DNA from: Leptogorgia sarmentosa | Taxonomy: Eukaryota | Direction: 5' to 3' | Length of the DNA stretch: 64,000 nucleotides | Assembly (NCBI GenBank): GCA_964658305.1 | Contig: OZ210885.1 | Location: 25,296,001-25,360,000 of the forward strand | In this document: positions 761 through 40,577 of the stretch, one piece after another | Layout: the number at the start of each line of letters is the position of its first letter | Position numbering within the stretch: position 1 is the stretch's first letter | Position numbers and translations under genes: made by a program | Notes under the pieces: generated by a model | What the model was told of the DNA's origin: nothing | The model's database searches: none | The model's input: the letters and a program-made list of their open reading frames with translations, nothing else

Positions 761-3526
761 CAGTGTTTCCATTTGCAAGGATTTTTCCTTGCAAAAGGAA
801 TTTTTGCCCTTTGCAAAGACAAATGCAAGGAATTCAAAAACAGAAGGAATTGGCAAGGAAAAATGACTTTGCTGAAGGAATTTTCCAGGATATTTGTTAA
901 ATGTTGAAAAATAGTGCAAACTCCAGCCAAAATCTAACATTTTCGATATAATATAATAATGTAAAAAGTCATCAATGTACAATAAACGATCATGGAGGAC
1001 ATTGAGGGCATATTGGGGATATGTCATATATGCCACAACTTCATTTAATACTCCTGATGTATATAAAGTCCAGTTTCGCTATTTGTTTCTCTACCACTAA
1101 ATTTAAATCTACCGCTTTATGAATATGGATGTGATGATTCATGATTCAGATTCTTCTGTAAGTTCTGTGGAAGAACAACTTGAAGAGGAGGGACATGGCA
1201 GTAGTGCCACCTCCTCGAATTCCAGAATTAAACGTAAACGTCCCAAGCATGTCCAAGCATTTGTGGACAGTTGGTTGAGTGACAAGCAATTCGAAGGGTG
1301 GTTGTGCAAGAGAATTGGCAGAGGTAATACTTGCCAACCATATTGTAAGGTGTGTGACAAGTTTTTGACATGCTCAAAGACTGGTTTAAAGCGACATCTA
1401 GCCACATATTTGCACCAGAAACGAAGTGCAACAACCGAAAACACATCTACCATCACTAGTCTTTTTACAAAAGCTGCAACAAAAGAACAATCTAGTTCCA
1501 TGGAGATTAAATTATGTGCATTCATTGCGGAACATAATTTACCCATATCTTTGTCAGATGATATGCTAGAATTTCTTAAATCACTTTTTCCACTGGATAA
1601 CATTCTGAAAAACGTTTCCCTTGGGAAACAGAAAGCCACCAACGTGCTGCGACAAGTTCTTGGCTTCGATTATTTAAAGGAGGCAGTATCGACCCTGCGC
1701 TCCAGAAAATTCAGCTTTATCATCGATCAAACAACTGACAAGAGTACAGCCAAGCAGCTTGCTATCCTGGCGACATATTTTGACTTGGAAAGTTTCAAAT
1801 CCAAGCAGTTTTTGCTAGACATGATTGAAGTTGAAGATGGGACAGCAACAGGCATTTATACAGCAGTTAAGCAGTCATTTGCTGATTTGCATGTTCCGAT
1901 GAATAACATCATCGGTTATTCTTCAGATACAATGAATGTCATGTTCGGGCAGTTCAATTCAGTCGCTCAGCTTTTAAAAGCAGATTTTCCAGATGTCATC
2001 ACAGTGAAGTGTTCCTCCCATTTAATTCATTTAGCATCATCTCAAGCAGCCCTTACATTACCAAAAGGTTTGGAGGACTTGTGTCGAGATATATTTTCAC
2101 ATTTTAGCCGTTCTTCAAAAAGGCAGGATGCTTACGAACAGTTCCAGCAATTTTTCAGCGTTGAGCCCAACAAGTTGCTCTCACCAGGGGAAACACGATG
2201 GCTGTCGTTAGAAGCATGTGTGAACCGTATATTGGAACAATATATTGCGTTGCAACACTATTTTCTTCTTGTTGCCAATGAACATCCATCTCACGCTGCG
2301 GACCGCATTGTAAAGTTGCTCAATAACAAATTCACTTTGGCATACCTGGAATTCCTCAGTTTTCAACTCGAACGTTTGAATGATTTCAACCGTCTGTTTC
2401 AAAGCGAAAGGCCTCTGTTACAAAGCCTTAAGAATGAAGTAGAAGAGCTCATCAGATCTATTTCGAGTGATTTTATGGATATTCGTCATGTTAAAGTCAC
2501 CAATCCAAAGGACATTGATCCTAAAAATGTCACTTTCCATGTTCCACTGAATGAAGTTTATGTTGGTGTGGCAGCCACTGCAACTCTTGATGAAATAAAG
2601 GCAGGGACAAGCGAAGAGGACACTGACCTACATAATTTTATGATCAATTGTAGGAACTTTCTCATTGAAAGTATTGATCGGATCCAACGAAGATTTGATT
2701 TAGATGCTGAGATTCGTGATGTTGTCCAGTGCACATTGCCCCAAAAGGCTGCAGCCCGAGTCCCCGCTTCCCTAGCAAGTGTTGTGAAGAAGTTGCCGTA
2801 TCTAAATACTATATTAGATACAAAGAAGCTTGATGGTGAATGGAGACAACATGTCTTTGAAGAAAATCTTGGACCTGATCTCAGCTGGGAGGACTATTGG
2901 ATAATGTCAGAAATGCCAAATTGTCAACAGGAGAGCCAAAATACCCAAATCTGTCAAGATTCGTTGAAGTGGTAGCCTCGTTTCCATTCTCGAATGCAGC
3001 TGTGGAGAGGGTATTTAGTTTATTGAAGTGAATCAAGACTGATGATCGAACACGTTTGAAGTCTTCCTCATTGGTTTCCCTGTTACAGTGCAAGTTGTCA
3101 ATGAAGAATGGCAAGTACAACACAGCTACTCTTAAGCCAACGAAGGATGCAGTGGAGCTTTCATCCAAAATGAAGTCCAGTGCTACCGATGCAGAAGCTA
3201 AACAGTTGCGAAAGCAATTCCTAGACAAACTGTTTAGTTGAGAACAACCTTTTAGTGTAGTTAGTGTTGTGACTTGTGACAACTGCTACGCTTTTAGCCT
3301 TTTACTGTTTTACATATCATGTATATCGTACTGTAATTGTATAAATTACAAATTTGGGTTTGGTACATTGGTTAACAAGTTTTTATGGTGAAAAACATAT
3401 TAAAATAGTTTAAAATGTGTTTGTAAAATCATTCTTTTTATGGGCGTTTGCAAGGATTTTTTGCTGTTAACATGGAGTTTTGAAGTCGTGATAAAGGATT
3501 TTAAAAATTTGCATGTGGAAACACTG
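761..3526 (+). mobile_element. Full-length hAT DNA transposon
   Basis: TIRs CAGTGTTTCCA(TTTGCAA) at 761 and (TTGCATG)TGGAAACACTG ending at 3526. Perfect 8-bp TSD CCCCTATT at 753-760 and 3527-3534. Confidence 0.95.
1119..3241 (+). pseudogene. hAT transposase with a frameshift at about 2903 and a TGA at 3029
   Basis: N-terminal Zn finger (CKVC..LKRH..H), FIIDQTTD, SSDT, CSSH and TRWLS motifs. The C-terminal dimerisation region FPFSNAAVERVFS lies in the shifted frame. Confidence 0.9.
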
Positions 3527-5508
3527 CCCCTATTACAATTTTCATTACTAGTTGCGATGCATTTGAGATGTTTTCCCACACCCTTTTCATGGCGTAAACT
3601 TCAAAAGCAACACAACCTAATGCATACACATCTATGTATGCATCTGCCCGCTTTCCTTCCAGTGACTCTTTGTGTTGATACATTATCGTGCCGGCATTAG
3701 CACTATTTCGGGTAATTTGCTGTAGAGGTAAAAGCGCTCACACTGAAGTCGCAAAGAACTGTCTTACGTTCTTTTCTCAACCTGTAAAAATAAGAATTCG
3801 TATTATCAATGGTAAATTTTATTTAAAGATCTATGTTATTGTGAATAACGCACCCACAGATTCGTTTCAGGCAACAAAAAATGCACGTAAGTTTTAACAG
3901 TTAACGAATATTATTGATTCCAGTATATATACCAAGTGCTAAACATTACTGTTTGTTTGTTTTGCTACCCACATTGCAATGTGGGTAGCAAAACAATGAT
4001 CAATCCTGTTTTCATCAACATTGCAACAAGTTGTTCAACATGTCGGTATACTCGTACCAAAACATTTGCAGGCTTTAAGTCTTGGTGAACGATCCCTTCT
4101 GCATATAGATATAGACAACCGTTAGCAATTTGGTAAAGAATAAATGGTTTAGCATCACCAGCAATCTATAAAATTAAAGAGTGACTTTGCACATTAACGA
4201 GACGCAAAGATGCTCACACTTACCCCACCCATAGCAAAGAATACAAAGGAAGATGCGGCCTAACTTTCTAACTATCGAACATATGAAAATTGTTGCCATG
4301 AACGTTTTCACAAGTGAGGTCTTCCAAGTTCCTGAGTGTAATTTTTTGCATATATCATGCGCAAAGTTTTGAACTGATGTAACCTTAGCATACAGCCATT
4401 AAATTACTTTCGATTATCTTAAAGGTGTATTATAATTATAGACAAAATTGTTGAAAATGCATGTTAGAGCAAGTTCCTGCTCTGATTTTAATATCTAAGT
4501 CTAAAAAATCGATTACCTTCATGCATGTGCATGGAGGTTTCTAAAAACCACAAAACGCATGTCAAAAACGCAACGTAAATTACTGGGGTGAAAGTCTGGA
4601 TAAATGTTTTTGTTATATGTAATTGTTCTTGTCGATCTATGCATTTCGATTGGTCAATTATTGCATACAGATAAAACAAGTAATCACGCAACCTGCATGC
4701 ATGTTTGGTCTACGATGCAGAAAAAAGCATGCGTTGAAAAAGAAATAAATATAGAGTCTAGTTAGTAAACTAGTAAAATATTTGTTTCTTGAAATGTGCA
4801 ATAAAACAATTATTGAATTCGGTTTTTGTGAGATGCACGCTCACCTTCAGCTCAGCTGATAACACTTACCTCGACCTTGATATGCCGCATATCACATGCA
4901 TAAACCTCATCCAAAAATGATCTATTAAAAATCTTATTTTGCCAATTATAATTACGTCTGCAGCGTGCCTCCTAAAACATGTACTTTTTTTCTGCTTAGA
5001 TTATACAATTTGCATGTGCATGGTACCTGAAACACCGTGAAAATACAGCTACATAACCAATACAAAAAATAGCTAAAAAGTTTAGTTTGCACCGGTAGTA
5101 TTAATATAGTACCGTTTCGCATCAATTTGGAAAAAACATGCACAAATAAGTTTTTCAAAGCACTGGTCACAACTCGAACTTACACCTAGAAAAAAACGTT
5201 TATAGTACTTTTATAGTAGATTCATAGTACAACTCAACAACCAACCTTTTAATGTCATCGCTAGTTGATGTTTTGGAGTCCTAAAAATTTTGCAAAGACA
5301 ATTTTATAGCCATCATATAGGAATGGAAGATCTTGCCAAAAGCCATTTATTGAGTAAAAGAGCAGACATTCAAAATTATCACTAAAATCACAAAAATTTG
5401 ATACCTGCGTCACATTACTATTTCGTTCTTCATCAGTTGGTTTGGATTGACTGGCTGTCTGAGAAAACATAAATGATAGGTAAGGTGTTAACGCATATAT
5501 TTGTATAG

Positions 5509-10785: not shown

Positions 10786-10843
10786 ATTCACTACAAATTT
10801 GTTTCGTATGACAAACAATGCTTGCCACACTCATCAGGTGAAT
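10786..10843 (-). ncRNA. Type I hammerhead ribozyme (inverted copy)
   Basis: Reverse complement of 12975-13032 with one G-C to G-U change in stem II. Confidence 0.8.
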
Positions 10844-12451
10844 TTAAATGCCTCGCTATGTTGTTGCCAAGGTTATATATACTATATACATGTTTGACGT
10901 AAACGGAATGCTCAAGTATTAGATTACATTATATATACAGATTATATTAAGTAATGTATATTACTTAAGAGAAATTTGTTTCTATGCCTGCATTTCGATA
11001 AAAGTTCGCTTCTTGAATTTAAAGAACAAAGTTCAGGGTGGTAAATTATAATGAATTTCTCATGTGTACAAAGACTGCATCGTTTTGTTGTGTTGTTCTT
11101 TTCAGCCGAAAGGAAACTTGGTGCAAGAAAGAGTCAGATAGCCTCTTTGATGTAACGATGGGCTGTTTTGATGGTGCAGAAACATGCGAGCTAGTTGGCT
11201 TATTCCTACTATCCAAACTACCTCCAGAGTATAGAAATGATATTGGTCTCTATAGAGATGATGGCCTTGCAGCATTTGATGAAAAACCGAGAGCAATAGA
11301 AAACATCAAGAAACAGATTTGCAAAACTTTTAATGAACACAATTTAAAGATCACAATCGAAGCCAACAAAAAATGTGTCAATTACCTAGATGTCACATTC
11401 GACCTAAGAGATTCGTCATTCAAACCATACATGAAACCAGGCAATACGCTCCAATATGTCCATCGTCAGAACAATGACCCACCCGCGGTTTTAAAGGCAA
11501 TCCCAGTTGCAATTAACACTCGATTGTCCAACATCTCGTCTGACGAACAAGCATTTGATTCAGCTTGTCCCCCATACCAAGATGCCTTACATAAAAGTGG
11601 TTACAACTACAAGCTAAAATACAACCCACAGCAGACAAAGACAAAACGCACTAGAAACAGAAACGCTATATGGTTTAATCCACCTTATAACTCAAATGTC
11701 AAAACGAATATCGGTCATAAATTCCTCCAAGCAATTAATCATTGCTATCCTATAAACAACCCTCTACACAAAATATTCAACAGAAATACCTTGAAGCTAA
11801 GTTACACTTGCATGCCGAACATCCATAATATAATTTCTGGCCACAATAAATCGGTAGTAAATAAGCGTACGTCAACAGATGCGTCGACTGCATGCAGCAC
11901 GAAACCAAGACAATGCAATTGCAAGAATAAATCCTCATGTCCACTGTCTGGAAAATGTCTAACATCCAGCGTAGTATACCAAGCAACAGTTGTTAGGAAC
12001 GATACGAACATAAAGGAATCGTATGTCGGACACACGAAAGGAGAGTTCAAGACAAGATACAATTGTCACACTAGCTCATTCAGATTAAGCAAGTACAGAA
12101 ACGCGACAGAGCTAAGCAAATACATCTGGAAACTTAGAGTCAAAGGTCATGTACTCTATAAGCTGGCGTATTATTAAACAATGCAAGAGCTACATCAACA
12201 CAACAAAACGATGCAGTCTTTGTACACATGAGAAATTCATTATAATTTACCACCCTGAACTTTGTTCTTTAAATTCAAGAAAGAAGCGAACTTTTATCGA
12301 AATGCAGGCATAGAAACAAATTTCTCTTAAGTAATATACATTACTTAATATAATCTGTATATATAATGTAATCTAATACTTGAGCATTCCGTTTACGTCA
12401 AACATGTATATAGTATATATAACCTTGGCAACAACATAGCACAACATTTAA

Positions 12452-12970
12452 GGTTACAGGAGACCCTACGCGCAGGTTTCGGGAGATTTACCATTACTCG
12501 GCGAATTTTTATCCAATTTCTCTCAAATTTTCTCCAAATATAGTCAGATAGATGAAAAAAAACATAGGGTTATAAAATATATCAGAAAGAAATAACTTTC
12601 CTGAATATTGTTACAAGTTTAAGTTTATGGGACCTTCGCGCGGCGAGCTATGTTAGATGTAGGTTTCACTAAAATCCTGTCAATCTATCATTTTTACTCT
12701 TCTCGAGTATTGCACTAAAAAAGGGTGTTCGATATAGATTGACAGAATTTTAGTGAAACCTACATCTAACGTAGCTCGCCGCGCGAAGGTCCCATAAACT
12801 TAAACTTGTAACAATATTCAGGAAAGTTATTTCTTTCTGATATATTTTATAACCCTATGTTTTTTTTCATCTATCTGACTATATTTGGAGAAAATTTGAG
12901 AGAAATTGGATAAAAATTCGCCGAGTAATGGTAAATCTCCCGAAACCTGCGCGTAGGGTCTCCTGTAACC
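12452..12970. mobile_element. Foldback MITE with TTAA TSD (Kolobok-type GG..CC ends)
   Basis: 237-bp near-perfect TIRs at 12452-12688 and 12734-12970; TTAA at 12448-12451 and 12971-12974. Confidence 0.9.
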
Positions 12971-12974
12971 TTAA

Positions 12975-13032
12975 ATTCACCTGATGAGTGTGGCAAGCAT
13001 TGCTTGTCATACGAAACAAATTTGTAGTGAAT
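12975..13032 (+). ncRNA. Type I hammerhead ribozyme in the Penelope 3' repeat
   Basis: Stem I ATTCAC/GTGAAT; core CTGATGA; stem II GTGTGGCAAGC-ATT-GCTTGTCATAC; GAAA; palindromic stem III ACAAATTTGT; GUA cleavage site after 13026. Confidence 0.85.
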
Positions 13033-13626
13033 AAATTCTTATGAAGTAAAGGCTGTTTCATCAGATGGCTGACAAATTTCGAAAAGTTTGCTGCTTATAA
13101 GTGTTTTGAGTCGGAAACGCGGGCATGGGCGTCAAACTATGACGCGCGAAACCGGACAAAATTAGCTAAACCGAATATATAGATCAATGTTACTATATAT
13201 ATAAAACAATGTTGCATATATGTAAATCAAAATCAAATATATAAAAGTAGCCGCATATATCTAAAACAAGTCACATATATATAAGACAAGTTGCCAATGA
13301 TATAAAAGCAGTTTGGCGTATATATAAAGCACATCGCATATATATAAACAAGTTGCAATTATGTACGGCATGATAACATTTTGCCTAACATTTTACAATA
13401 TATTTAAACAAAATTTTCATACTAAACATGTTACCATATATATTTGAGAAAGGTGACCGTATATAGCACATTTGGCATATAAACATAAAACACAATTGCC
13501 GAATATAAAACGAGTGCCGAATATATATAAAGCGTGGTTACAAAGTACAATACGGTTATATGAAATACTTCCTTGCAAAAAGCGGGTATCAGCAACGCAC
13601 CAGAACGAGGCACGAATGTGGTCAAC

Positions 13627-16600
13627 ATGGCCGACAGGCAAGTGCAAATTTTGAGCAATTTGATTAAAGCTGTTAGCAATGTCGCAGAAAGCGGTGCTGC
13701 ACCGTCCACCTCCCATGGTTTGAATAGCGAGCAAAGTAATACAAGTGTGGAAGAAGCGATTAGGAGATTGTTTCCATCAACCGCTTCAACAAGCCAAACT
13801 GGAAACCTTACTACAGAAAACGGGCCAAGCAGCAGAACCCGAGAGAACCATAATGTGAATGGCAATGCAGTGGGTGAAAATTCCGATCGAAATACTGGCT
13901 TTAATCCAAGCAATGTTTATATACCAAGTGGCAAGAAGAGAGCAAAGTCGTTTTCATCAAAGGCATCCAAAAAGAAAAGTGCTAAAGTTTCGCAAACGGA
14001 AAGAAAGTTGCTAAAGGACGTTATCTTACTGCCAGGGCCGAAAGTCAGCACTGTGCCAAAAGGCGTTGCACGCGAAGATCTGTTTGCACGGGGATTCACG
14101 ACAACCTTTGAACTGTCTCCTTCAATGATCGAGAAAGACATACGAGAAGTCTTAGAGCAAAAATTCCAAGATAAACTGCGCAACATTCCGGCGCCAAAGT
14201 TTACCTTCGTCCGGGCAGTGAGCAACAAAATCGTTGTTCCTGATGTGTCCACAGCAGGATCATCATCTGGTGAAAGCTTTGATGGACGAATGCTCAAGCA
14301 TTTTTCTGGACAAGGTCCGATATATATAAGAGCAGTCAAGGACATTAGTTCCGTATTTTTTCGTGGGCAGTGGGCGAAGCATAAAGATGACAACAGTGAC
14401 AGTGATGTCAGCAGTGAGAGTGATGACAGCTTACCTGCAGGTCTAACCGCACCAGGTTAGTTCATCCATAGACTTTTATTATAAAAAATAGATTGTCCCC
14501 TCTAATAATCCTCTATTCAGGTGAAGTTTATTATTAAGCACCTCCCTAATACACCACTCAATCCACCTTTGAAAGGGTGCAAAGAGGGTAAATTATTGGA
14601 AGCTAATTAGACTCCAGTATTAATACCACAGTTTGAATTATTAATCATTACTGACAATAATTACTGAATATGTAAGTTTAAAGCAGTGTGGACCGCCAGT
14701 TCTGACTGGGATATCTGTATAGGGAGTGTGGGGATATGTTAACTGTTCACATATATGATACAAGGATCATGGTTCTGTGCAGCTTCTGGAAAATGTGATA
14801 ATGACTGAAACAAGGGATTGGATATAGGAATGAATTAGGAAGAAGGATGCAATAGAATCACCATGCAACTTACTAAGAGAATTAATTAATTGCTGTGGTT
14901 CAATCAAACAATGTGGTTCAATCTGGTGATGACTAGTTATGACAAGTGGTAGCTATATAGAATAACCTTTGGGGAACATTGGGAGGTGCAGCAGATGTGC
15001 TGCTCTACCATAATTATATGATTGTGTTTGTGATGATTACTGATATAATTTTTTATTACCAGGGCCACATCAAAGACCAATGCAACCTGCCTGCCCAGTC
15101 ATGCCAAATTTGAGTTGCAATCAGCCATCAACTTCTAATGATACAATTGCAGCTTCTAACTCAAGTAGCCAAAGTAACATTTCAAGTACATGTAACAATG
15201 TAGTCACATGTCCTACATGCTGTATGTCTTTTCCTGTTGGGGAGATTGAAAGCCATGCTGATACTTGTGCAGAAGAGAAATTTGGAAGCATTGATGAAAA
15301 TCATTATAATGATCTAATGAATTTCTTTGATGTGGACCTTTATGAGCAGCACATAGACCCCATGGAACCAGCCATTATTGATATTGATTGTGGTGATGAA
15401 GACAACTCCTGCAGTACTGCATCTGATACACAGGCACCTGGCAACCATAAATTGAAAATCAAAGAGGCTATTACCAAGTTGAATCAGCTTGTTCCAGATG
15501 AACGTAGCAGATATCACATCAGAAGAAAAACAATTTTTGATGATTACATCAGTGCAAGGGAACGGTGCAAATGGCTGAAACCAGAGAACAGAATGAATGT
15601 TACATTCATTGGGGAACCAGGCATTGACAGTGGTGGACCAAAGCGAGAGTTTTTAACAGGTACCATCGCAAAATATTTGAATGTTGAATCACTCTCCTTG
15701 ATATTTGAATTAATTTCTACCTTTGCGTCTTTCAATGGTCTAGCAATTTACTTTATAGCCATCGGCCATGCAGGGAAAGAGACTAGCAGATTGCTTTGGC
15801 CACAAAATAGGCTTAAAATTCTGAAAAAAACTTAATAATCCTTAGTCATATATATCTCATCAGGTCGATGTACATAACTACTTGAAGATATCCCTGACAA
15901 TTGTGAAGCCTGGAGCACATTGCTTGAGTGTGTACTATATATATCACTGGAATGGCATTGTGTAGACTGACAATTTATTGCACATGCCTTATTTTTTTAT
16001 CATAATTAATAGATGCACTGAAGCATATTGAAATGAGGCTGTTTAATGGAAAGGGGATGCTTGTGCCAAGTACAGTGGCACTTACATCATCCCACTTCAA
16101 ATATGCTGGAGAACTGATGGCATTATCTGTGGTTCAAGGTGGTCCTTGCCCTAACTTCTTGTCAGAGCAACTTTATGACCTTTTGTCGAAAGGCTTGAAG
16201 GGCATCAAATTGTCCACCGACATGATCGAAGATAATGAAATGCGAAATGTTGCAGAAAAGGTAAATATTTGTGTTGTAATTACCAGTTTATAAAATATTT
16301 CTTTAATTAACAGATAGCTTCTCAGCTGGTAATTCAGGTAGACCATCACAAACCCTAGTGCCCAGCTGCACAACAGTCTACAAGTCTGCCATAATGGTTC
16401 AAGAGCAGGATTGCATGGTTTGCAGAGCTCTGTAGTGATGAATACATACAAAAGAGCTAAATATTTGTTCACTGCTGTACTTACAGATTGAACAAACACA
16501 GACAAACGAAGACTTGACAAATGTGCTGATGGAGGACAGTACACTGTCTGTGCTTTCCTTGGTTGGCTATAGAGGGGTTCCATCCAGAGAGACATTATCC

Positions 16601-17587
16601 TCAAAATATAGCATTGTCAGGTAAGAATTATTTGACATAACCTAAAGCTGTGATTGTCAACCCATGTTTTTCACTCTGTATATTATATATATATATATAT
16701 TTTATTTATGGGATAAAATACTGAGAAGGGAGAAACAAAATTATATATCTGGTCATTATAGAGCCATTACAGTGAAGGCAGTGATTGAGCCGCAACTTGG
16801 CCCATTATCGCAATTAGAAGAAGGTTTAAAGATGTATGGATTTCTCAATGAAGTTAAAACTAGCCCAGATTTATTTCAGCCATTGTTTGTTGCAAATGCT
16901 TCATACATGTTTGATGTTTCCCCCGAGGAATTTTTGATGGATGTGATGGTGACCTACAGTGATAAGCAGCGAGAAAAGCATGCAGAGGAGGATACATTTA
17001 AACACTTTTGTGATGTTGTTGAATACTTATTTCATGCTGGTATGTCTGTGTCTGTGCTATCCAGGGGTTACTGTGTGATATGAGAATCCACAGAAAAAAT
17101 GTGGTTTTGTCTGAGGCAATTATTAAGAAAATGTTAAAATATGCTGGCAATGTTTTATAATATTTATGCTGATATGATAGACTAAAAAAATAAATTCGCC
17201 ATATTAATTTTCGCAATTTAGCTGAGGAGGCTGGGCAAACAAGGGTGGGGTTTGATATTTGCACAATGTGAACACTTTACAGTGAAGTGTGAACAACCAT
17301 ATAATTGATACTTTCTTTGTTACCTGCTAGGGTCTGATGAAGTTAACCTGTCACTCTCAGATTTGCAAAAGTTCATAACTGGTACCTTCACTATTCCACC
17401 ACTGGGGCTTGGATGTCCGATTGAAATATGTTTCTTACATGGGTGCAATGAAGGCTGTCGCTGTAGACCAGTGGTATCCACATGCTCGCTGAGGATAACC
17501 ATACCAGTACATATCAACACTTTTACTCTCATGAAAGAAATGGTAATTTCAGCCATAAAAGAAGGAAGAGGTTTCGGAAATGCTTAA
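13627..17587 (+). CDS. Transposon-borne HECT-domain E3 ubiquitin ligase with UBZ-type Zn finger, 6 exons, 780 aa
   Basis: Exons 13627-14455, 15063-15659, 16013-16260, 16487-16620, 16762-17039 and 17331-17587 are all GT-AG and phase-compatible (2343 nt, no internal stop). Motifs: CPTC-x11-H-x3-C; VTFIGEPGIDSGGPKREF; AGELMALSVVQGG; QLEEGL; KFITG...PPLG; PVVSTC; terminal GFGNA. Confidence 0.88.
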
Positions 17588-17967
17588 AGGATGTGAATGC
17601 ATTGTAGTACATACTGTATTACAGAATATGGATAAATTACCCTATAAGACACTTTAAATTGGTATTCTACAGTATATTGTGTAACTAAAACACGGATCAC
17701 AGTAGTTTCTTAGTTGATTATTGGGTATGTTTGTTAATATTATTTATCCAGTTGAGTAAAGTTGACATTTTATGCACTTTAATATAGATCACCCAAAACA
17801 ATCAGAAAATAAAACCAGAACATGTGTGGCATGACATGCAGCTAAATAATAGCTATATTTGTTAATATTACTATTTATTTTGGCAAATGTTGAGGCTTAT
17901 GCTTTAGTCCAAGTTTATCATAAATACAGGATATAACTAAAATTGTGTATAGCAATTCATTAACAAA

Positions 17968-19812
17968 TTAAGGGTTCTCTCTTCCTGTTATAAGCCTTTC
18001 AATTGCTGTAAGGACTATCAAGTATGCCTGTTCACCATGCTCATTCCTGGGAATGTCAGATGTAGCTAAATCTTGCAATTGTGAAATTTCATCTTCAGTA
18101 AGATCAACATTTATTTCTGGTACAATCACATTATTTCGTGTTTGTATTTCTGGAACTGGACCTTCATCATCAATACCAAAGTTTCTTGCATTCTCGTCAC
18201 TCAAAAGATCCAAAACAGCTCCATGATTGGAGTTTGCATGATTGTAAAACCCCTCTGTCCAAATTTGATAGGGACTCCTGTTCCTCTCTGAAGACAGTGG
18301 ATGGTGATTCCATTGTTGGACAAGATGAAGTAATGCATGATTTATCCGTTGTTTGTAAACCAAATGTAAGGCAAGCAAATGTGCCTCATTTACTGGGTCT
18401 AACAGGTTATGTGATTCAAAGTAGTAAAATAGGTTTTTAAAGTAACGCACAACATAAAGGTTGACATCCTTCCATAATCGTTCAATCCGCTGATTGTGAA
18501 CGGAGAGCCCTGTAATAACTGGATTTCTTAAGACACCATAATGATGTAACATATGGCGTGCAACATGCACATTTTCAGTGCCATGGTCACATCTTATTCT
18601 TCTGGGAAGATGGAATTGCTGAATTGCCTCTTCAAACAGAGAAAGTACAGTATCTGCTCTGTTGTTGTCTGCGCATCTTAGGTAAACAACTGTCCGAGAG
18701 AACCCATCAATTGCACCATGCAGTACAAACCTCCAGCGTATTAACTTATGGTTTCCATCAGCATGCCTATATAAGGATGCAATAGGTTTCTTATAGCTTC
18801 GGCTTTGTACTGGCCCCTTTACCTGTATTCCTTTTTTGCCTATACCTGGCAACATGTCCCTACCCACTCTACGATAAATTGCAGCTGGAGACAGAAAAAC
18901 CTCATATCAACAGTAAGCATGTGACATATGCTTATAGCCTTATTGGCAAACCACTCTTGCTAAGTGTTGTCAATTATGCAATGTGCATACACTTGGATAC
19001 AATGTGGATACCAAGTGTGGTTCTGCAGCAATAATTATCCTGGGTCAGAGGGTCATGTTGGGGGGCATAGCCAAGATTATTTTATGTTCATTGACCACAA
19101 TTAGTACTTACCATAATGCATTAGGGGTGGGTACATTATACGCACGTCGGATGATTGCTGTTCTTCTTCTCATTTCCCGACTTATGGGGTCCACACGACC
19201 AATGGACCTTCTTATGCGATCTCTTTGGACTTTCAGACCTTGTGCTCTTAAGGAACCAATAACCATTCTTTCACCAGACTCTGGAGATAAGTTCAGTATT
19301 CTTCTAACAAAAACATCTAACTCGTCATCTGGGATGGCAGAATAAGCATTTTCATGCCCAATCATCATTCCAAGTTCCTGCCTTCTACGTCTAATAGTCC
19401 TCTCGGACACCCCCAGCATATCTGCAATTTTCTGCCAGGGGAAGTGCAATGAACGCAGACCTTCTAATTGCTCCTTTGGTATAAGAAAACGTGGCCGACC
19501 AACACGGGGTTCATCTCGTTCTTCGTAAGGACGTTGATAAGATTCTTCGCTTTTCTCAATGAAATTATTGAACCGTTCATTGAAATGATTAATGTAACCT
19601 TGTAGATCAGCAATAGTGGTTGCAAATCCACCGCAGGTATCCTCTCCCCAGTCATACACGTGGAGCAACACCACTATTCCATTCACGTATTCTTCTGCCC
19701 TGGAAACCAAAAGTTCTCCGAGTTGTGCATTATCTGAAAACGAATGGCGACGAAGGTCTTGAAACAAATTGATTCCGAGCGATAAAAATTCAATGATAGC
19801 TGTAAAGTCCAT
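17968..19812 (-). CDS. IS3/IS481-like integrase-core DDE transposase, 2 exons, 499 aa
   Basis: Exons 19812-19112 and 18766-17968 (phase-2 GT-AG intron, 1500 nt). HTH WQKIADMLGVSERTIRRR; catalytic motifs WHADGNHK, RCDHGTEN and HNQRIERLW. Confidence 0.92.
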
Positions 19813-20374
19813 CAGTGACTGTGAGTGAGTCTCGAAAACAACATGCGCAAAGCATACGAAGTATCAACTGTGCTTCAACGTGTACTTCCGCAGTTCCGCT
19901 GGCCCACTTGCATGGACCACTGTATCTTTCCAACTTTGTAACCACGCTTTATATATATTCGGCACTCGTTTTATATTCGGCAATTGTGTTTTATGTTTAT
20001 ATGCCAAATGTGCTATATACGGTCACCTTTCTCAAATATATATGGTAACATGTTTAGTATGAAAATTTTGTTTAAATATATTGTAAAATGTTAGACAAAA
20101 TGTTATCATGCCGTACATAATTGCAACTTGTTTATATATATGCGATGTGCTTTATATATACGCCAAACTGCTTTTATATCATTGGCAACTTGTCTTATAT
20201 ATATGTGACTTGTTTTAGATATATGCGGCTACTTTTATATATTTGATTTTGATTTACATATATGCAACATTGTTTTATATATATAGTAACATTGATCTAT
20301 ATATTCGGTTTAGCTAATTTTGTCCGGTTTCGCGCGTCATATCAAACAATGCATGCATTCCTTGATTTCCTTTC

Positions 20375-22520
20375 ATTGTTTAGGTTGTTTACTAGGTATT
20401 TCTTTTAATGATTACATGTCGAAACTATTTCCGATTTTTTTCTTTAGTAAATTTTGTTTGTTTTTATCTTTCAAAATACAGAGCTTTTCTTCTAAACAAA
20501 AATTGCATCTTTTTGTTCCTCCCGAATACGAAATACAATGCTTAATTATAGACCAAGTAATGTCGAAATCTTTGTTTTAAGTCCCCAAATATATTTCGAA
20601 AGTTCTGTTTCGTTTGAGTACCTTTTGTGGTTAAATGATTTAATATGGTTTCTATATCGCTCTTTAAATGTACTTGTCGTCATGCCTATGTAATGTTTTG
20701 TGCTGTTTGTGCAGGTGACAGTGGCCTTGTAAACTATGCCTTTGGTCATGCATTTTCCCTGAAGTGGGCATGTGTTCTTGTCTCTACAAGTGCATAGGTC
20801 TGTGGCCTCGCACTGTGGCTTACTTTTCCTAATCATACGTGTGTTGTGCCTAGAAATTATAGGCTTGACATTGTTCATGCAACTGTAACTGACCTTGACT
20901 GTGTTCCTATTAAAAATCTTGTGTAGCTTGTGGTGAGGTGGAAAATGTATGTCTAATAAGCCCAGGAAATCACATGCGATGTGTGTCTTGACACTCTTGC
21001 TGAAAGGGGGATTAAACCAAATGATGTTGCGTTGCCTATTTCTGCGTGTTTGTGGTGCTTGATTCATGTATTCAAGCTTGTGGTCCAAATTGCTGTGCCT
21101 TAGTGCGTTCTGGTAAGCAGGAGCACTTTCATGGAATGTGTGCTCATCTGATGAGAGTGTCGAAATGCGCTTGTTGATCGATGTGGGTAGTTGTCTTATG
21201 ATGGTGGGTGGTTGGAATGTTTGTTTATGTATAGTGGATCGTCATTAGGCTTTCTATATGGCTTAAAAAAAGTGACATCTAAGAAATTTACTACATGCAA
21301 ATTTGCCTCAGATGTTATTTTTAAACCAAAATTGTCGAAACATTTCACGAGTTCTTTCCTGGTTTTATCTGCCAAACGTGCTGATTTGTTTTTCATGATA
21401 GCCAATCCATCATCTCTGTATAAACCGATGTTTTCTTTGCCAAATTTTTCGCCTAGATCGTTTAGTATGAAAAGGCCTACAAGTTCACAAATTTCAGCTC
21501 CGTCGTAACTACCCATGGTTACGTCAAATAAGCTGTTGCTGTCTTTTTTTATCCAAGGTTTTCCGTATTGAAAAGTAGTGATTTCCTAGCGTGTTTTATT
21601 ATTGAAATGTCATCCTTTGATATGTGAGCCAAATTGGAAGCCCAAGATAATGCTTGGTCCAGTAAATTTTCTGATATCGATGGGTAGAAATCAACTATGT
21701 CAAACGAAATGAAAATGTGCCTATGTTTTTCTTTAATGTTGCCAAACCACTCTATAACGTTTTGGGTGTTTTGCCATTGGTTTCCTCAAATTGGGATTGA
21801 TTTTGTCATTCCAGATTTGCTTTTTTGCGGGATTGATTAGTCGGCATTTTGGGTTGTTTTCGAAATTTTCTTTGTGGTTTTTTAATGAAATAAATGCTTC
21901 ACGTTTTTTCATCTGTTCAATCCGGTCGCCAATTCCTAAATTCTTCGAAATGTGTTTTAGTTCATTGTCGATTTCCGAAATTGTGCCTTCTGATCCGTGT
22001 TTGTATGTTTTTGCGATGTTGTCATGCATGAGCTTGTTATATGCGTCGAGTGATGTTTCATAGATATTTCTAGTTTTGTAAGCAAAAACGAAAATGTTCG
22101 GAGACGAATTAATTCTCTTTAAATCATTTGCCAAAGACTTTTGAAATTGATTTTCTGCGGTTCGAAACTTAATGTTTTCAATTAGGTTAATAACATCATT
22201 CTCAAAAGGTTTCACTTCTAAAATTGTGGGAGGTGTTTTGTTGGAAATTTTGTCTCCTTTTAGGAAAAAATGAGCTTTCCATCTCACGTGTTTCAGTCCA
22301 CTTTCAACTTTTTCAATCAAATTTCTCAAATAAGCATCCTGTGATGGTATAGGAATGTTTTTCAATGAATAGTCGAATCGAAATTGTCTCATGTTTTAAG
22401 GTGAAATGTATATTCCGAAAACGAGAGTGCACAACCGATACGATACGGTATACGATAAAGTTTTGGTTAACGAAATGCCAAAAGAGTGCTCGATACCATA
22501 TAGATAGAGCAAATAGTATA
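20375..22520 (-). mobile_element. Penelope-like retroelement 2, full-length but disrupted ORF (RT + GIY-YIG)
   Basis: Starts MRQFRFDYSLKNIPIP at 22392; contains MGSYDGAEICEL, LYRDDGL, WFNPPF and IVYKA..YIG; several frameshifts. Confidence 0.9.
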
Positions 22521-22528
22521 GTATTTGT

Positions 22529-24007
22529 AGTATTAAAAGACCACAAAGAAAATTTCGAAAACAACCCAAAATGCTGACTAATCAATCCCGCAAAAAGCGA
22601 ATCTGGAAAACTAAGTAAGATCATCCTTGACAAAATCAATCCCAATTTGAGGAAAATTTTGAACCTAAACCAATGGCAAAACACCCAAAACGTTATAGAG
22701 TGGTTTGGCAACATCAAAGAAAAACATAGGCACACTTTCATTTTGTTTGACATAGTTGATTTCTACCCATCGATATCAGAAAATTTACTGGACCAAGCAT
22801 TATCTTGGGCTTCCAATTTGGCTCACATATCAAAGGATGACATTTCAATAATAAAACACGCTAGGAAATCACTACTTTTCAATACGGAAAACCTTGGATA
22901 AAAAAAGACAGCAATAGCTTATTTGACGTAACCATGGGTAGTTACGACGTAACCATGGGTAGTTAAGACGGAGCTGAAATTTGTGAACTTGTAGGCCTTT
23001 TCATACTAAACAATCTAGGGGGGAAATTTGGCAAAGAAAACATCGGTTTATACAGAGATGATGGATTGGCTATCATGAAAAACAAATCAGCACGTTTGGC
23101 AGATAAAACCAGGAAAGAACTCCATAAATGTTTCGACAATTTTGGTTTAAAAATAACAGCTGAGGCAAATTTGCATGTAGCAAATTTCTTAGATGTCACT
23201 TTCGATCTTAACAATGGAAAATTTAAGCCCTATAGAAAGCCTAATGACGATCCACTATACATAAACAAACATTCCAACCACCCACCAAGCATCATAAGAC
23301 AACTACCCACATCGATCAACAAGCGCATTTCGACACTCATCAGATGAGCACACATTCCAGGAAAGTGCTCCTGCTTACCAAAACGCACCAAGGCACAGCA
23401 ATTTCGACCACAAGCTTGAATACATGAATCTAGCACCACAAACACGCAGAAATAGGCAACGCAACATCATTTGGTTTAATCCCCCTTTCAGCAAGAGTGT
23501 CAAGACACACATCGCACATGATTTCCTGGGCTTATTAGACATACATTTTCCACATCACCACAAGCTACACAAGATTTTTAATAGGAACACAGTCAAGGTC
23601 AGTTACAGTTGCATGAACAATGTCAAGTCTATAATTTCTAGGCACAACACACATATGATTAGGAAAAGTAAGCCACAGTGCGAGGCCACAGACCTATGCA
23701 CTTGTAGAGAGGAAGAACACATGCCCACTTCAGGAAAAATGCATGACCAAAGACATAGTTTACAAGGCCACTGTCACCTGCACAAACAGCACAAAACATT
23801 ACATAGGCATGACGGCAAGTACATTTAAAGAGCGATATAGAAACCATATTAAATCATTTAACCACAAAAGGTACTCAAACGAAACAGAACTTTCGAAATA
23901 TATTTGGGGACTTAAAGATAATAACAAAGATTTCGACATTACTTGATCTATGATTAAGCATTGTATTTCGTATACGGGAGGAACAAAAAGATGCAATTTA
24001 TGTATAA
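22529..24007 (+). mobile_element. Inverted partial copy of Penelope-like element 2
   Basis: Reverse-complement match to about 20500-21890, with scattered substitutions and indels. Confidence 0.9.
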
Positions 24008-24690
24008 AAGGCCCTTTGGTGTTGCCCGTCCCCATGTCTGGTTTTGGACCCTCGTTCAGCTTTCCACAACAATTCGCAGCCAGTTTCGGGGTCTTTACTG
24101 AGCACTATATCACCCCATTTCAACTTTCTCGATTCGTCACACACTCGAAAGCCAAAGTACAGGGAAAGAATCCGCCAAACCATCCTCTGGAGAACTTCTG
24201 GGTCTTGTTTCCCGAAACAGACCTAACTCGAAGAACTGGTCTTCCTCTGCAATCGTTAACTCTCTACAAGCTTGTGGTCGATTTCCTTTGGCGTGTTGCT
24301 GTACGAGGTAGTGTTGCTTCGCTGAAAGAACTTCTCGCGATTTCGAAAATTCTTGGTCTTGTAAGATATTTATTGTGGAACTCTTATCGTTTAAATATCT
24401 TTGCAAACTTCTCTGGAAGTCCTTGAGAGAACTTGGTTCATAAACATCGCCATTTTCGTATATTCATGAAAAATTTCGCTGGACATTTAGTTCCTTCCCA
24501 GGTATGCTTTCAATTTCTCTTCTTTCATTTATTGATTCAAGATACTGTTTAAAGCACATTGGCACTAAAATTGCCAATTCCAATATCTTTCAAGCTTACC
24601 TACGGAATACTTAATTTCGTATTTTCGCTTGTCTTAATCATTTAGTTCATGAGAAAATTGTAAAAATGTTCGACGCTTGTCCGCCATTCT
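24008..24690 (-). pseudogene. Crypton/DUF3504-type tyrosine-recombinase fragment
   Basis: FFMNIRK..GDVYEPSSL..FQRSLQRYL, GNRPQAC..LT..EED, LSLYFGFR..DESRKLKWGDI and ERGSKTRHG motifs; frameshifted and truncated at the Penelope junction. Confidence 0.75.
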
Positions 24691-33245: not shown

Positions 33246-33799
33246 AGGGATACGATTTTGATACCTGGCACGCTTCGTCAAGAACTTGTTGGTACAGCTA
33301 ATCTCGAACTGAGCATCGTTTGGTGTCATTGGTATTCTCCGTCCATTTATCAAGCATGAAGGTGTCAGAGGGTACGAAACCCCTTCCTGTTCGTCGTAAA
33401 TATATGTAAGCGGTCTACTGTTTAAAGTAGCTTCTATGTCGATCAAAATTGTTTCCAATTCTTCAAACGTAAGAGACTTACGCCCGAGTGACTTCTTTAA
33501 ACATCTCTTTACACTCCTATGGTGCTTTTTTAGGTTCAAAATATACTGTTGTAAATTTATCGATATTTCTACGCGAAGGATAACAATTTGCCGTTTATAC
33601 ATGAATTTATCGAATAAAAATTCCTTTAATTATTCGAAATTTGTCGAAACGTAACTATAGAACAATTTTAATGAATTCGTCGATTATATAAATTCTTCGA
33701 TAATGCCTTGCGACCTTGGTGAATTGAGCCCGCAGATCTCGGAGGAGGATAATGAAATTATCAAAACTTCATTTAATTATGCTAAGAATTTTCAACAAA

Positions 33800-35572
33800 A
33801 TGGCGGAGGCTAATGTTGTAAATTTGTATTCATCACGATTAAGACAGACCCTTCTTGATCTTTCTAGAAGATTGCAGTCTAGCCCAGACGAGAACGTTTT
33901 AGACTTCGTTATATTTCGTTTAGAACAAATATGTGGTTCGAACGGGGATCGAACGGGGAACAGATTTAACACAACCTTTCATGCTATTTTAGATGTTATT
34001 TCTTTGCTTCGAGATTTAAGTTTACAAAATAGATCTTTTCCACGCGTCTTAGAACAAACCAGAAGCAACTCAGTGGGAAGACCGAAATTTGTGATCACCA
34101 GGGAACAACTGGTCTACATGCTTGAATATGACATCTCAGTACCAAACATTGCACATGTCCTTGGAGTGTCTCAAAGTACAATAAAAAGGCGGCTTAGAGA
34201 ATATGGTATTTCCATCCGAAGCGACCACTGCCTTAACTGATATAGCACTGGATGAACTTGTAAGAGGTGTGCAGGAACAATTTCCAAATGCTGGATATCG
34301 AAGAATTTATTCTGTGCTGAGGTCGAGATCAATAAGAGTCACTCAGGCAAGAGTTAGAGATTCATTGCACAGGACTGATCCTGAAGGTGTGGCGATGAGA
34401 TGGTTGTCAATCACTCCTAGACGGGTGTACAGTGTTAGAGGTCCTCTTTCCTTATGGCATATAGATGGCAATCACAAACTCATTCGGTAATTAATTTCTA
34501 ATTATAAATCAATCATATTTTATGGAAAGCTTAAAATGAAAATCTAATATGCTTAATTATCTCAATTGTATAGATGGAGGATTGTAGTGCATGGAGGGGT
34601 TGATGGCTATACACGCATACCAGTATACTTGAAGTGTAGTACAAATAATCAAGCTGATACCGTGCTACAATTGTTTCAGGACGCTGTGGCCGAATACGGA
34701 TTACCATCAAGAATAAGATCTGACAAAGGTGGTGAAAATGTCCTTGTATCAATATTCATGCTCAATCATCCACTAAGAGGCCCAGGTTGAGGTAGTATGA
34801 TTGTGGGCAAAAGTGTGCACAATCAGAGGATTGAGCGATTATGGAGGGATGTCTTTGATGGAGTTTTATATATATATTACCATCTCTTTTATCACTTGGA
34901 AGATTCCTTAATTATTGACCTAACAAATGAAATGCACTTTTTTGCATTGCATTTTGTTTATGTGCCAAGAATAAATAATCATCTTGACCTTTGGAAAGCA
35001 GGATATGTTCACCACCATATTAGGACTGCTGAAAACCGTACACCTATGCAGCTGTACATCCTTGGCTTACTAAGAATGCGTGGAAATGGTTTTACTGAAT
35101 TAGATTATTTGGAAAATGTTCCGGAGGTAAGTATGATAAAATCTGATCAGTAATTTGAAAATTGAGTGTTTTAATCAAACAAAATCACTCATTGAGCAGC
35201 AGCTCTCTCCACTTGACGAGTAAAATAGTCTGACATTAGACAGTAAAACACCAAAAGTGGAGCACACTGCAGTTCAAAGGATTGACAGTGGGCGCATGGT
35301 TAAATTAATTTATTCAGTAGCAGACTGTCCACTTGATTGATTACTGAATTTTAATCTAGGAGGATTTAGAATCATATGGCATTGATTATGACGATCCTGT
35401 GCCATTAGAGTCAGATGAAGTAAACAACATTGTTGTTCCTCCCACAAACAACCCATGTTCCCGAGAAAGATACCAAGAGCTTGTCCAATTAATTAACCCA
35501 ACCAGACAGAGTGATAACTACGGAATTGATATTCTCTTGGATGTCCTGGCTTTTCTGCAAGCATCAATATAG
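33800..35572 (+). pseudogene. IS3/IS481-like DDE transposase, 3 exons, with a frameshift at about 34225 and a TGA at 34788
   Basis: [37 protein letters not shown] and HNQRIERLWRDV; last exon YGIDYDDPVP..YGIDILL. Confidence 0.9.
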
Positions 35573-36059
35573 AGGTACTGAATACAAGTAAAGGTGGAGA
35601 TTATTCAAAGACCCTAATTAAATTGATTAATTAAGCTGTTTTCAAATCATAATTGTACTTTCATTATGCATTGACATAACACTCGTTCTATGATATATAT
35701 CTAGCCTCCGGTAAAAAGATGTAACAATGTGCCAATAATGATGAACACAAAGAATTTCAATACCAAATGCAACATATTGTTTCATAGTTTTGTCACATCA
35801 ATCGCTTTATCCCTCAAGATTGCAGGTTTTAGAGTTACAGACTTACAGTTTACGGTAAAGATTGCTATAAGATGCGTCAAACGCTCAAAAAACTAAACTA
35901 AATGTGAGAAGGTTCAATTAGTAGAACACCACAATTCCACGACAAAAAAAATTCAGGCCGCGCCCAAAACATGTGACCACGCCCACAAAAACCATGTAGC
36001 CATGCCCACATTTCAGCAATTGAAATCCTGGCTAATACCTTGCTGGTGGCAAACTCTGG

Positions 36060-39000: not shown

Positions 39001-40577
39001 AATGTATAGCTGCACAAGAATGTTTTAAATTTTCAGCACACCTTGTAACAATTGAGTTACCTTGTTCTCCTTCACTTTCTTCTGAATGCATATAGTCAGT
39101 TATTGGAACTTGCACAGGACTATCACAACTATAGATTTCAGAAACATTATATAAGGATCGTTGACAAGTAGATTTTGAAACAGGGAGTTGTTGCATGATT
39201 CTTTCAACACCCCACCCCATCGTGGACCATTTCAATTTTTTTTTAAATGTTCTGCAAAAGGGGGAGGGGTTAGTCTTGAATCCACGATTTCAAAAATGAA
39301 CAGAACAAATACACACTTTAATGCCTAATCAGCTGTTGATCCGGTTTATGATATGGGCTGGGAGGGGGGGGGGGGGGGGAACAAGTCCAACTGGTGGACT
39401 AAATATATTTGTTGATGCCCCTAATTGTATAGTAATTGTATATATTATATACTGAAGATACTCTAATATCTTATTTTATTGACTGTATGAAATTATGAAC
39501 TAACCTGTCAGTAGATACATGCTGTCTTGAAGGGCCACCACCACATATTTGCTGATGATCTTTTATTGCAGACATCATTATCTCATCATTGCAGTTGACA
39601 CATCGGACTTTTGGTGAGCAATACAACTCCTTAAAAGTGCAAATAAAACTATTTTTAACATTCTCTAAAACCCTATACTCGTTATTTATATAGACTAACC
39701 CATATTAAGACATGGGTTGGAAGTGTTATAAAGTTTCTGTAAAGGATTAACATTGCAACATCCTATTGTACATGCATACCTACAAAATAATAGCAGATGT
39801 GCACCGTACCTGAGCCACTTCATTATCATTTAACTTTATATCCTGTTGGAGGGGTCTCAAGAATGCTTTAGCTTGACCAAGTGCACTCTTCAAAAAATTG
39901 ACATCATACCCCATTGGAGGACAAGGCACATTTATCAATGTTTTTGAGTTTCCATCAGATGTGCGTAGAATTTCATATCCCCCTCCATCCATGAGGCTGG
40001 GGAAAGTTTCCAGTAACTTCTCGTGGACATGTGATGAGTCGCCATTTTTTAATAACGTTATTTTTTGTTCTCCCAATCCTGCCAAACTTAGTCTGATTCT
40101 TTCAGCAGCACTTGGAGGACTGCACTGATTTACTTTACTCAAACAAACAAATGCTTTGGTGAATGTATTTTTTTTAAGACTTGCCTTCGAATAGGGTGTG
40201 GTTGTGTTTCGAACATTTTTATAACTGGCACTGGCAGCACGAGAAACATGTGATTGTCTAGATCTAGTTGCAGCAGGAGGTCGATAACCAAATATACGTC
40301 AATGTTCTTGCAATGCCGACGATAAGGTAGACGTCTGAACACCTGGGGCAGCGGGTACAGGTGGGGCAACTGGTGTTGGGGTGCCAGAAGACACAGGGAT
40401 TGCTGAACTTGGAAGTGGCAGTTGCACGATTGTTGAAGTGGCAGATGCACCATTCGCGGGAACATTAATACTGCCACGGACAGGTGTCGAAGCTGGTGTT
40501 TGCCCAGCAGGAAAAGAAACGATGCCATTAGCAGCTGAAATGAGTCTTTCGGCGCAATCTCGCATAATATTTTCCAT
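36060..40577 (-). pseudogene. HECT E3 ligase gene of element 2 (UBZ-like + CUE-like + HECT), disrupted
   Basis: Exons include 40577-39810 (TGA at 40299), 39629-39505 (CVNC-x11-H-x3-C), 39128-39061, 38954-38835 (IFPNLE..INKAVDIVL) and one from 38165 (ITFSNQPAIDTGGVCREFF..IGKMIAHSV); later LDQLKEGL. The catalytic-Cys segment was not found. Confidence 0.8.
36892..37855. mobile_element. 964-bp non-autonomous TIR element inside a HECT exon
   Basis: 284-bp TIRs at 36892-37175 and 37572-37855, CAC..GTG ends, 7-bp TSD ATGCCAG. Removing it restores IVFSGIIEAIGK. Confidence 0.9.

Follow-up and report, generated by a model that had tools for sequence, protein, structure and literature searches.

Why does a DNA transposon carry a gene for a ubiquitin ligase opposite its transposase gene? 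This question was raised by an element of 7204 nt in Leptogorgia sarmentosa. It lies at positions 13138..20341 of a stretch of 64,000 nt (the window, whose positions are used throughout; GenBank assembly GCA_964658305.1, contig OZ210885.1, positions 25,296,001 to 25,360,000, forward strand). The element is of the IS3EU/GingerRoot type and encloses two convergent spliced genes, one for a transposase and one for a protein with a predicted C-terminal HECT domain. Comparison with related elements indicates that the ligase gene almost certainly belongs to the element. An earlier reading made from the letters alone (the sequence-only reading) had regarded the HECT gene as an accessory gene of a recently mobile IS3EU transposon. 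All of its coordinates hold, including the Cys codon at 17483-17485, and the Phe which it placed four residues from the C-terminus is Phe777. The age and breadth of the pairing, a ubiquitin-like domain, a zinc finger and a second element at 33518-40941 were unseen by that reading.

Recurrence of the gene pair in related elements

An alignment of 49 transposases was scanned against metagenome contigs. A relative was found in 489 stretches, and the best 80 of them were kept, which correspond to 62 families at 85% nucleotide identity. A HECT profile was seeded with the window protein, its homolog P0001 and 14 open reading frames (ORFs) from the retained metagenome loci. Where at least 2 kb was available downstream of the transposase, a convergent HECT gene was present in 17 of 20 families (27 of 32 loci). 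With 1.5 kb required, the count was 21 of 26 families, and with 1 kb it was 24 of 37. None of the reversed ORFs matched the profile at E 0.01. Because part of the seed came from the scanned loci, Pfam was used as a cross-check; its HECT family was found on 18 of 25 candidate ORFs, 15 of them above the cut-off.

Three independent relatives were delimited as complete elements around the pair: L028 of 8786 nt, L037 of 7553 nt, and L065/L067 of 7186 nt, which is a single insertion met twice. In each of them, terminal inverted repeats (TIRs), TATGG..CCATA ends and perfect 6-bp target-site duplications (TSDs) enclose both the transposase and the HECT gene. The search for TIRs and TSDs gave none at nine further loci (L027, L046, L048, L052, L056, L064, L074, L079, and L080). 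L028 and L046 are 98% identical and their left flanks differ. Between families, the transposases are 38-55% identical. The gene order did not cluster on the transposase tree beyond shuffles (34 of 500 were as low). In L045, an AAA ATPase gene (2665-3741, - strand; Pfam AAA, 59 bits) faces the transposase in the slot of the HECT gene; the contig of L045 does not include TIRs. The TIR-bounded relatives and the paired families bear out the claim that the HECT gene is an accessory gene of the element. As far as examined, none of the outcomes which the sequence-only reading had named as refuting occurred: the HECT profile matched, the splice junctions are supported, and relatives bounded by TIRs contain the gene. 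On these sequence comparisons, the view that the pairing is old and common to a wide IS3EU clade is supported.

The ligase gene and its protein

The ligase gene lies on the + strand. It has six exons with GT..AG introns and encodes an open protein of 780 amino acids (aa) with a single stop at its end. Its features are as follows.

13627..14455, + strand, ligase exon 1: N-terminal helix, RLFPS motif, basic stretch and ubiquitin-like domain
13747-13779, + strand, RLFPS motif in exon 1
13930-13983, + strand, basic stretch in exon 1, a likely nuclear signal (predicted)
13999-14349, + strand, predicted ubiquitin-like beta-grasp domain in exon 1
15063..15659, + strand, ligase exon 2: C2HC finger, acidic linker and start of the HECT N-lobe (from 15446)
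15203-15277, + strand, C2HC zinc finger in exon 2, likely of UBZ type
16013..16260, + strand, ligase exon 3: HECT N-lobe
16487..16620, + strand, ligase exon 4: HECT N-lobe
16762..17039, + strand, ligase exon 5: end of the HECT N-lobe and hinge
17331..17587, + strand, ligase exon 6: HECT C-lobe, Cys747, Phe777 and stop
17483-17485, + strand, codon TGC of Cys747, the predicted catalytic Cys
17573-17575, + strand, Phe777 of 780 (position -4)

The profile search proposed in the sequence-only reading gave a match of the last ligase exon to Pfam HECT (28.2 bits, cut-off 23.9). The other five exons, each searched alone, had no Pfam match. The nearest named homolog, P0001, is from the octocoral Paramuricea clavata, and 270 of 376 HECT residues (72%) are identical. 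Its database label is that of a host 'G2/M phase-specific E3-like' protein. Residues 339-705 of P0001 align end to end with the HECT domain of HUWE1 (E 9.7e-9), and through P0001 the window Cys747 aligns with the HUWE1 Cys. The model of P0001 matches HECT structures in Foldseek (HUWE1, E 2.8e-13; Smurf2, E 2.8e-11). The whole-model predicted local distance difference test (pLDDT) score of P0001 is 63.7 because of long disordered parts. The Pfam match, the alignment and the P0001 model all point to a two-lobed C-terminal HECT domain in the window protein.

The N-terminal helix and the RLFPS-type motif are conserved. A domain of about 120 residues in the N-terminal part also recurs in related elements, and its model has a pLDDT of 89.5. 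The closest structures are Shank3 SPN, plexin RBD, SAP18 and USP7 Ubl, with Z scores up to 6.4 and none at 8. The Foldseek search gave no match at E 0.001, and in the ESM Atlas only eukaryotic clusters without names were matched (0.90-0.94). With moderate confidence, the model is assigned a ubiquitin-like beta-grasp fold, an assignment that is silent on function. The C2HC finger is replaced in the second window element and in L077 by a CUE domain above the Pfam cut-off. The replacement suggests a ubiquitin-binding slot, and the finger is likely to bind ubiquitin.

Orthology with G2E3 was considered and rejected. Pfam gave no N-terminal PHD/RING-like fingers in exons 1-2 or in P0001; there is a single C2HC finger only. 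No PHD-type domain was found by Pfam in the window ligase exons, in P0001 or in 58 long relatives (E 0.001 for the relatives), and one of the 58 has a RING. The label 'G2E3-like' thus reflects the HECT domain alone.

Selection and co-divergence

The column of the HECT Cys is Cys in all 38 loci covered by the profile, and the median HECT identity is 23% among 25 representative elements. Relatives of P0001 were taken as the best 150 of the library matches. In this set, the Cys is kept in 97 of the 99 sequences covering the column and the Phe at -4 in 69 of the 74 reaching the end. The Phe at this position of HECT domains has a role in catalysis. Such conservation is hard to explain without catalysis, and it suggests that the ligase is very probably active.

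The ratio of non-synonymous to synonymous substitution rates (dN/dS) was obtained from pairs of related elements and not from the window element itself. For the ligase, it is 0.20 in L003/L006 (334 codons) and 0.27 in L013/L016 (70 codons), and for the transposase 0.21 and 0.16 in the same pairs. This was a check that the sequence-only reading had proposed for the HECT gene, and the values from the two diverged pairs (0.20-0.27) are in its favour. The synonymous rate is saturated for L028/L026. The distances of ligase and transposase are correlated (Spearman 0.30, Mantel p 0.0004; 298 pairs, 25 elements). The subtype of the ubiquitin-like domain tracks the transposase clade, with the second window element grouping with L065.

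A homolog search gave 1737 clusters at E 0.001, of which 495 reached 1e-10 or better; the weaker ones will include ordinary HECTs. Among 58 near relatives, this HECT clade is fused to CARD plus caspase, Neuralized or RING domains, and to UBX in four. The fusions are found in P0165, P0239, P0174, P0212, P0216, P0257 and P0251. They possibly reflect host recruitment of a transposon ligase.

Boundaries and age of the element

13132..13137, + strand, left TSD, TCAAAC, single copy in empty-target contigs
13138..20341, whole element, IS3EU/GingerRoot-type DNA transposon, 7204 nt
13138..13546, + strand, left TIR, 409 nt
19933..20341, - strand, right TIR, 409 nt
20342..20347, + strand, right TSD, TCAAAC

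The two TIRs differ by one mismatch, at 13384, and are thus near-identical as had been claimed. The termini are TATG..CATA, or TATGA..TCATA in longer form. The perfect TCAAAC duplication was also recovered; the chance of a 6/6 match is about 1 in 4000. The left TIR contains 15 subterminal motifs with an ATATA core, spaced mostly by 16-26 nt, and likely holds candidate transposase binding sites and a promoter. The ligase ATG lies 80 nt inside the inner end of the left TIR and the transposase ATG lies 120 nt inside the inner end of the right TIR.

Empty TCAAAC sites, which the sequence-only reading had proposed to look for, were found in public runs. In contigs of X5, X6, X7 and X8, the left and right flanks are joined through a single TCAAAC, and the duplication is confirmed by them. 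The target itself (13033-13137 and 20342-20420) is a very abundant repeat. The summed contig depth in X1, which is no copy number, is about 6,800 at 20373 against 44-91 in the ligase gene. Therefore, the single-TCAAAC contigs may stem from further copies of the target rather than from an allelic empty site. No second junction of the window copy was found in the contigs of the public runs. A diverged sister copy is present in X1, X8 and X9 over 17382-20220, about 93-97% alike in the pieces listed. It has small indels or frameshifts in the transposase and a different sequence before 17382, and related pieces also occur in a run labelled organism B. The window copy looks like a young insertion, as its TIRs differ at 1 of 409 positions and both frames are open; the claim of recent mobility is supported on the same grounds.

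The observed/expected ratio of CpG reaches 1.68 in the TIR. It is 0.83-0.84 for the first exons of the two genes, 0.35 for exon 2 of the transposase and 0.24 for the region of ligase exons 2-6, introns included; the value for the whole window is 0.82. The pattern of the element may be read as resembling unmethylated promoters and methylated gene bodies.

The transposase gene

19112..19812, - strand, transposase exon 1: variable N-terminal region and helix-turn-helix region
17968..18766, - strand, transposase exon 2: DD34E core and C-terminal part
18759, 18588 and 18483, - strand, DD34E residues D237, D294 and E329, respectively

The transposase gene has two exons on the - strand and encodes an open protein of 499 aa. 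Exon 2 matches the Pfam family rva_4 (PF24764, 241 bits), rve is also matched by the transposase (35.4 bits), and the helix-turn-helix matches in exon 1 are weak and below the cut-off. D294 is invariant and E329 almost invariant across 49 homologs. Alternative acceptors giving 509, 511 or 530 aa were rejected since the contig of X5 uses 18766. A pattern search found no HHCC zinc motif in the first 240 residues. Placement with Ginger1 or the long terminal repeat integrases, which have TG..CA ends, was rejected as well, with the HHCC motif absent and the ends being TA..TA. Transposase relatives in viral contigs were also looked for, and none was confirmed among 97 pattern matches.

Transcripts and splicing

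Parts of the stretch occur in nine of the 14 public runs that were listed (three studies), and none of the nine is recorded as RNA. A contig of X5, free of other letters and gaps, skips all of the six predicted introns on both strands, and its length of 4106 nt equals that predicted for the spliced sequence. The two convergent spliced genes of the sequence-only reading, with their products of 499 and 780 aa, are confirmed in this way. Contigs of X6 and X7, which come from the same study as X5, join across intron 5, and at intron 4 they have a loose end that matches exon 4. No intron joints were found in X1, X4, X8 and X9. X5-X7 are probably transcriptome runs, and both genes would be transcribed and spliced.

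17588..17967, gap separating the stop codons of the two genes; polyadenylation hexamers at 17808 (+ strand) and at 17778 and 17874 (- strand)

The spliced contigs cross this gap. Therefore, the 3' ends of both genes likely overlap. A contig spanning both genes does not show one transcript.

Possible mechanism and alternative explanations

We propose the following role of the ligase in transposition. The near-identical TIRs would serve as twin promoters, so that both genes are made together. The transposase would cut at the TA ends and join with a 6-bp stagger, as is established for this class of enzymes. The ligase would probably enter the nucleus by means of its basic stretch and would probably be brought to the complex by its N-terminal motifs or its ubiquitin-like domain. 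Cys747 would accept ubiquitin from a host E2. The ligase, aided by the likely ubiquitin-binding finger, would then tag the transposase or proteins beside it. Host p97 and the proteasome would strip the tight complex that follows insertion, so that the gaps can be repaired. Ubiquitin tagging would also cap the level of the transposase.

Among the possible substrates, the element's own transposition complex is favoured, at somewhat less than an even chance. The hints at this class of substrate are indirect. They are the correlated distances of the two proteins, the subtype which follows the clade, the AAA ATPase or alpha-kinase in the same slot, and the UBX domain in four of 58 near relatives. 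UBX is a p97-binding module, and integrase-type and Mu strand-transfer complexes require active disassembly. A prediction of ligase residues 1-246 in complex with the products of both transposase exons scored 0.28 and 0.31 against a mark of 0.34, in a job without alignments or folded controls and with the HECT domain and the finger outside it. The full proposal is that a widespread animal IS3EU lineage has long carried its own ubiquitin ligase as a second core gene and ubiquitinates its transpososome, so that a host segregase and the proteasome finish transposition. It would be a eukaryotic counterpart of the remodelling of Mu by ClpX. Taken as a whole, this proposal is tentative and rather unlikely.

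Several results weigh against it. Of the 20 families with 2 kb or more downstream, three lack a convergent HECT gene. L052 and the L053 family are without one (L052 has a ubiquitin-like ORF 6 kb upstream). In L070 and L077, the HECT gene is upstream on the opposite strand, and in L025 a ubiquitin-like ORF is downstream on the same strand. Such families and gene orders indicate that the ligase is dispensable for some relatives. One element subgroup ends in W-x-M-D, with Met instead of Phe at -4. In near-identical pairs, the ligase dN/dS is 0.47 and 0.86, on 16 and 8 changes, respectively. The best Z score of the ubiquitin-like domain is only 6.4, and the zf_UBZ match of the C2HC finger in homologs is below the Pfam cut-off. 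All of the spliced contigs come from a single study, whose runs have no RNA record. Finally, the co-divergence of ligase and transposase is modest, and physical linkage alone would give at least part of it. Shallow clades agree between the two trees and deep branches differ, which fits a swappable module with a host target.

The last point leads to anti-silencing, which is nearly as likely a role as action on the transposition complex. Here, an active ligase owned by the element would destroy or re-mark proteins of host chromatin or silencing, such as histone readers and factors for DNA methylation or small RNAs, so that the element stays transcribed and its ends accessible. The deep branches of the ligase tree do not follow those of the transposase tree, as would be expected of a module that can be exchanged. 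The accessory domains of the N-terminal part vary (C2HC finger, CUE). The CpG-rich TIRs and first exons and the CpG-poor later exons are like those of an expressed host gene. On the other hand, no chromatin-reader or DNA-binding domain was found by Pfam in the ligase exons, and no result points to a host target. Besides, the position of the ligase is kept across transposases as diverged as those above, in hosts with presumably differing silencing systems. TET/JBP genes in rust-fungal IS3EU and in other transposons have been proposed to act against silencing by methylation (PMC12730594).

An active ligase could also be long-kept cargo with no role in transposition, under selection because of what it does to the host cell (stress, immunity, or cell survival). 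The fusions of the same HECT clade to CARD plus caspase, Neuralized and RING among the near relatives, and the related elements without a ligase, are in line with this idea. However, ligase and transposase have similar dN/dS values between lineages of the element, 17 of 20 families retain the gene in the same place and direction, and the ligase ATG near the TIR mirrors that of the transposase. Cargo is improbable. A catalytically silent scaffold is slightly more improbable still. Such a protein would aid transposition by binding ubiquitin, an E2 or the transposase, and its divergent HECT domain would transfer no ubiquitin. The HECT domain is indeed far from the solved ones (13-18% identity among 40 Foldseek matches listed), and mutation of the HECT Cys of human G2E3 did not abolish in vitro activity (Brooks et al., reported in PMC7394505). 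Nevertheless, the conservation of the Cys and of the Phe at -4 described above speaks against a scaffold.

The remaining explanation is recent capture of a host G2E3-like gene in Pack-MULE style, a host gene between chance repeats, or a mis-predicted gene. GingerRoot elements do take up host gene fragments with introns (PMC6839031), and the homolog is annotated as a host protein, but these captures are fragments, often with loss of the transposase (PMC6839031). The X5 contig bears out every one of the six predicted introns, relatives bounded by TIRs and flanked by other TSDs contain the pair with a HECT identity of about 25%, and no PHD-type domain was found in the 58 near relatives at E 0.001. 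By the spliced introns, the pairing in 17 of 20 families, the TIR-bounded relatives and the conserved Cys, this explanation is largely refuted and very unlikely.

If the ligase acts as predicted, mobile DNA would be seen to exploit the ubiquitin system in a new manner, through a stand-alone catalytic E3 under purifying selection like that of the transposase. The copy is compact (7.2 kb), with both frames open and all introns confirmed. Both cDNAs are thereby defined, and whether transposition depends on the ligase Cys can be assayed directly. The finding also calls for caution, since marine animal genes annotated as 'G2/M phase-specific E3-like' can belong to transposons. If the proposed ubiquitination of the transpososome is true, the many 'G2E3-like' genes annotated in corals and fish would for the most part belong to transposons, from which new host ligases could arise.

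The second element and the surrounding sequence

A second element of the same build, unrelated and decayed, lies at 33518-40941 of the window, with a transposase about 40% identical to the intact one. It has TIRs of 217 nt, TATGG..CCATA ends and a TSD of CACTCC/CACTTC (5/6). The transposase on the + strand has a frameshift near 34190 and a stop at 34788. The - strand carries an ORF of ubiquitin-like type (39783-40295), a CUE domain that scores 23.2 in Pfam (cut-off 21.1), and remnants of the HECT N-lobe; no HECT C-lobe was found in 33518-40941. The ubiquitin-like profile gave no match to this ORF at E 0.05, and the ORF was tied in by alignment and by 39% identity to an ORF of L065. The HECT exon is broken by an insertion of 976 nt (36886-37861) with inverted arms of 290 nt (97%).

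Long nested inverted repeats with remnants of reverse-transcriptase and GIY-YIG-like ORFs are present at 10786-13032 and 20489-24010, which we take to be Penelope-like. The rest of the window presumably contains hAT-, Gypsy- and Bel/Pao-like remnants, with labels taken from the translations.

Comparison with known systems

OTU and Ulp1 protease domains, which are modules of the ubiquitin or SUMO pathway, are found in Ginger1 and Zisupton. Zisupton and Ginger1 have adaptor or deconjugating domains fused to the transposase, whereas a stand-alone catalytic ligase is predicted here on its own gene. Zisupton with an F-box isoform is likewise a DNA transposon with a module of the ubiquitin pathway (cited in bioRxiv 10.1101/2024.12.17.628972).

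IS3EU/GingerRoot elements have TA..TA termini, a 6-bp TSD, an integrase-like core whose first Asp lies 100-300 residues from the N-terminus, and no HHCC motif (PMC10045372). IS3EU is structurally and functionally little explored (bioRxiv 10.1101/2024.11.21.624632). All of the examined features of the window element fit, and the assignment to IS3EU already made in the sequence-only reading agrees with its ends, TSD and DDE core. The first catalytic Asp, at 237, is inside the range. The core shares 43 of 115 positions, counted by eye, with the GingerRoot DDE query printed in PMC6839031. Placement as an IS3EU/GingerRoot-type element is supported by the described features and this by-eye alignment.

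No description of a transposon-encoded HECT ligase paired with a transposase was found in the literature searched, with Repbase, subscription journals and supplements outside its scope; Repbase may already note a HECT second ORF. Word searches gave neither HECT nor ubiquitin in PMC10045372 and PMC6839031, and no HECT in PMC12730594, PMC3520738, PMC10853768, PMC13343696 and three preprints. A meeting report of 2012 refers to conserved proteins of host origin in DNA transposons, with a presumed role in regulating transposition; HECT is not named in it (PMC3520738).

The protein resembles the HECT 'other' subfamily of HUWE1, E6AP and G2E3 in its C-terminal two-lobed HECT domain, C-lobe Cys and Phe four from the end (PMC6457168). 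Unlike these, it has low identity, is encoded by a transposon and has a predicted ubiquitin-like domain and a C2HC finger against the PHD/RING of G2E3 (PMC6457168).

The element resembles IS3EU/GingerRoot elements, known in corals and fish, in its TA..TA ends, 6-bp TSD and integrase-like DDE core without HHCC. In contrast to Selaginella GingerRoot, with TIRs of 100-150 nt, its TIRs are 409 nt. Unlike the GingerRoot captures, its second gene is a whole, conserved and spliced enzyme gene and not a fragment. The rust-fungal IS3EU elements (PMC12730594) are of the same superfamily, have the same TSD and carry a gene for a protein-modifying enzyme opposite the transposase. Their genes encode an alpha-kinase or a TET/JBP dioxygenase, whereas a ubiquitin ligase is encoded here. 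Their ends are TAYGG..CCRTA, those of L028, L037, L065 and the second window element are TATGG..CCATA, and those of the window element are TATGA..TCATA. The window element resembles in its working a two-gene cut-and-paste transposon with an accessory enzyme, within a known superfamily rather than a new class of elements.

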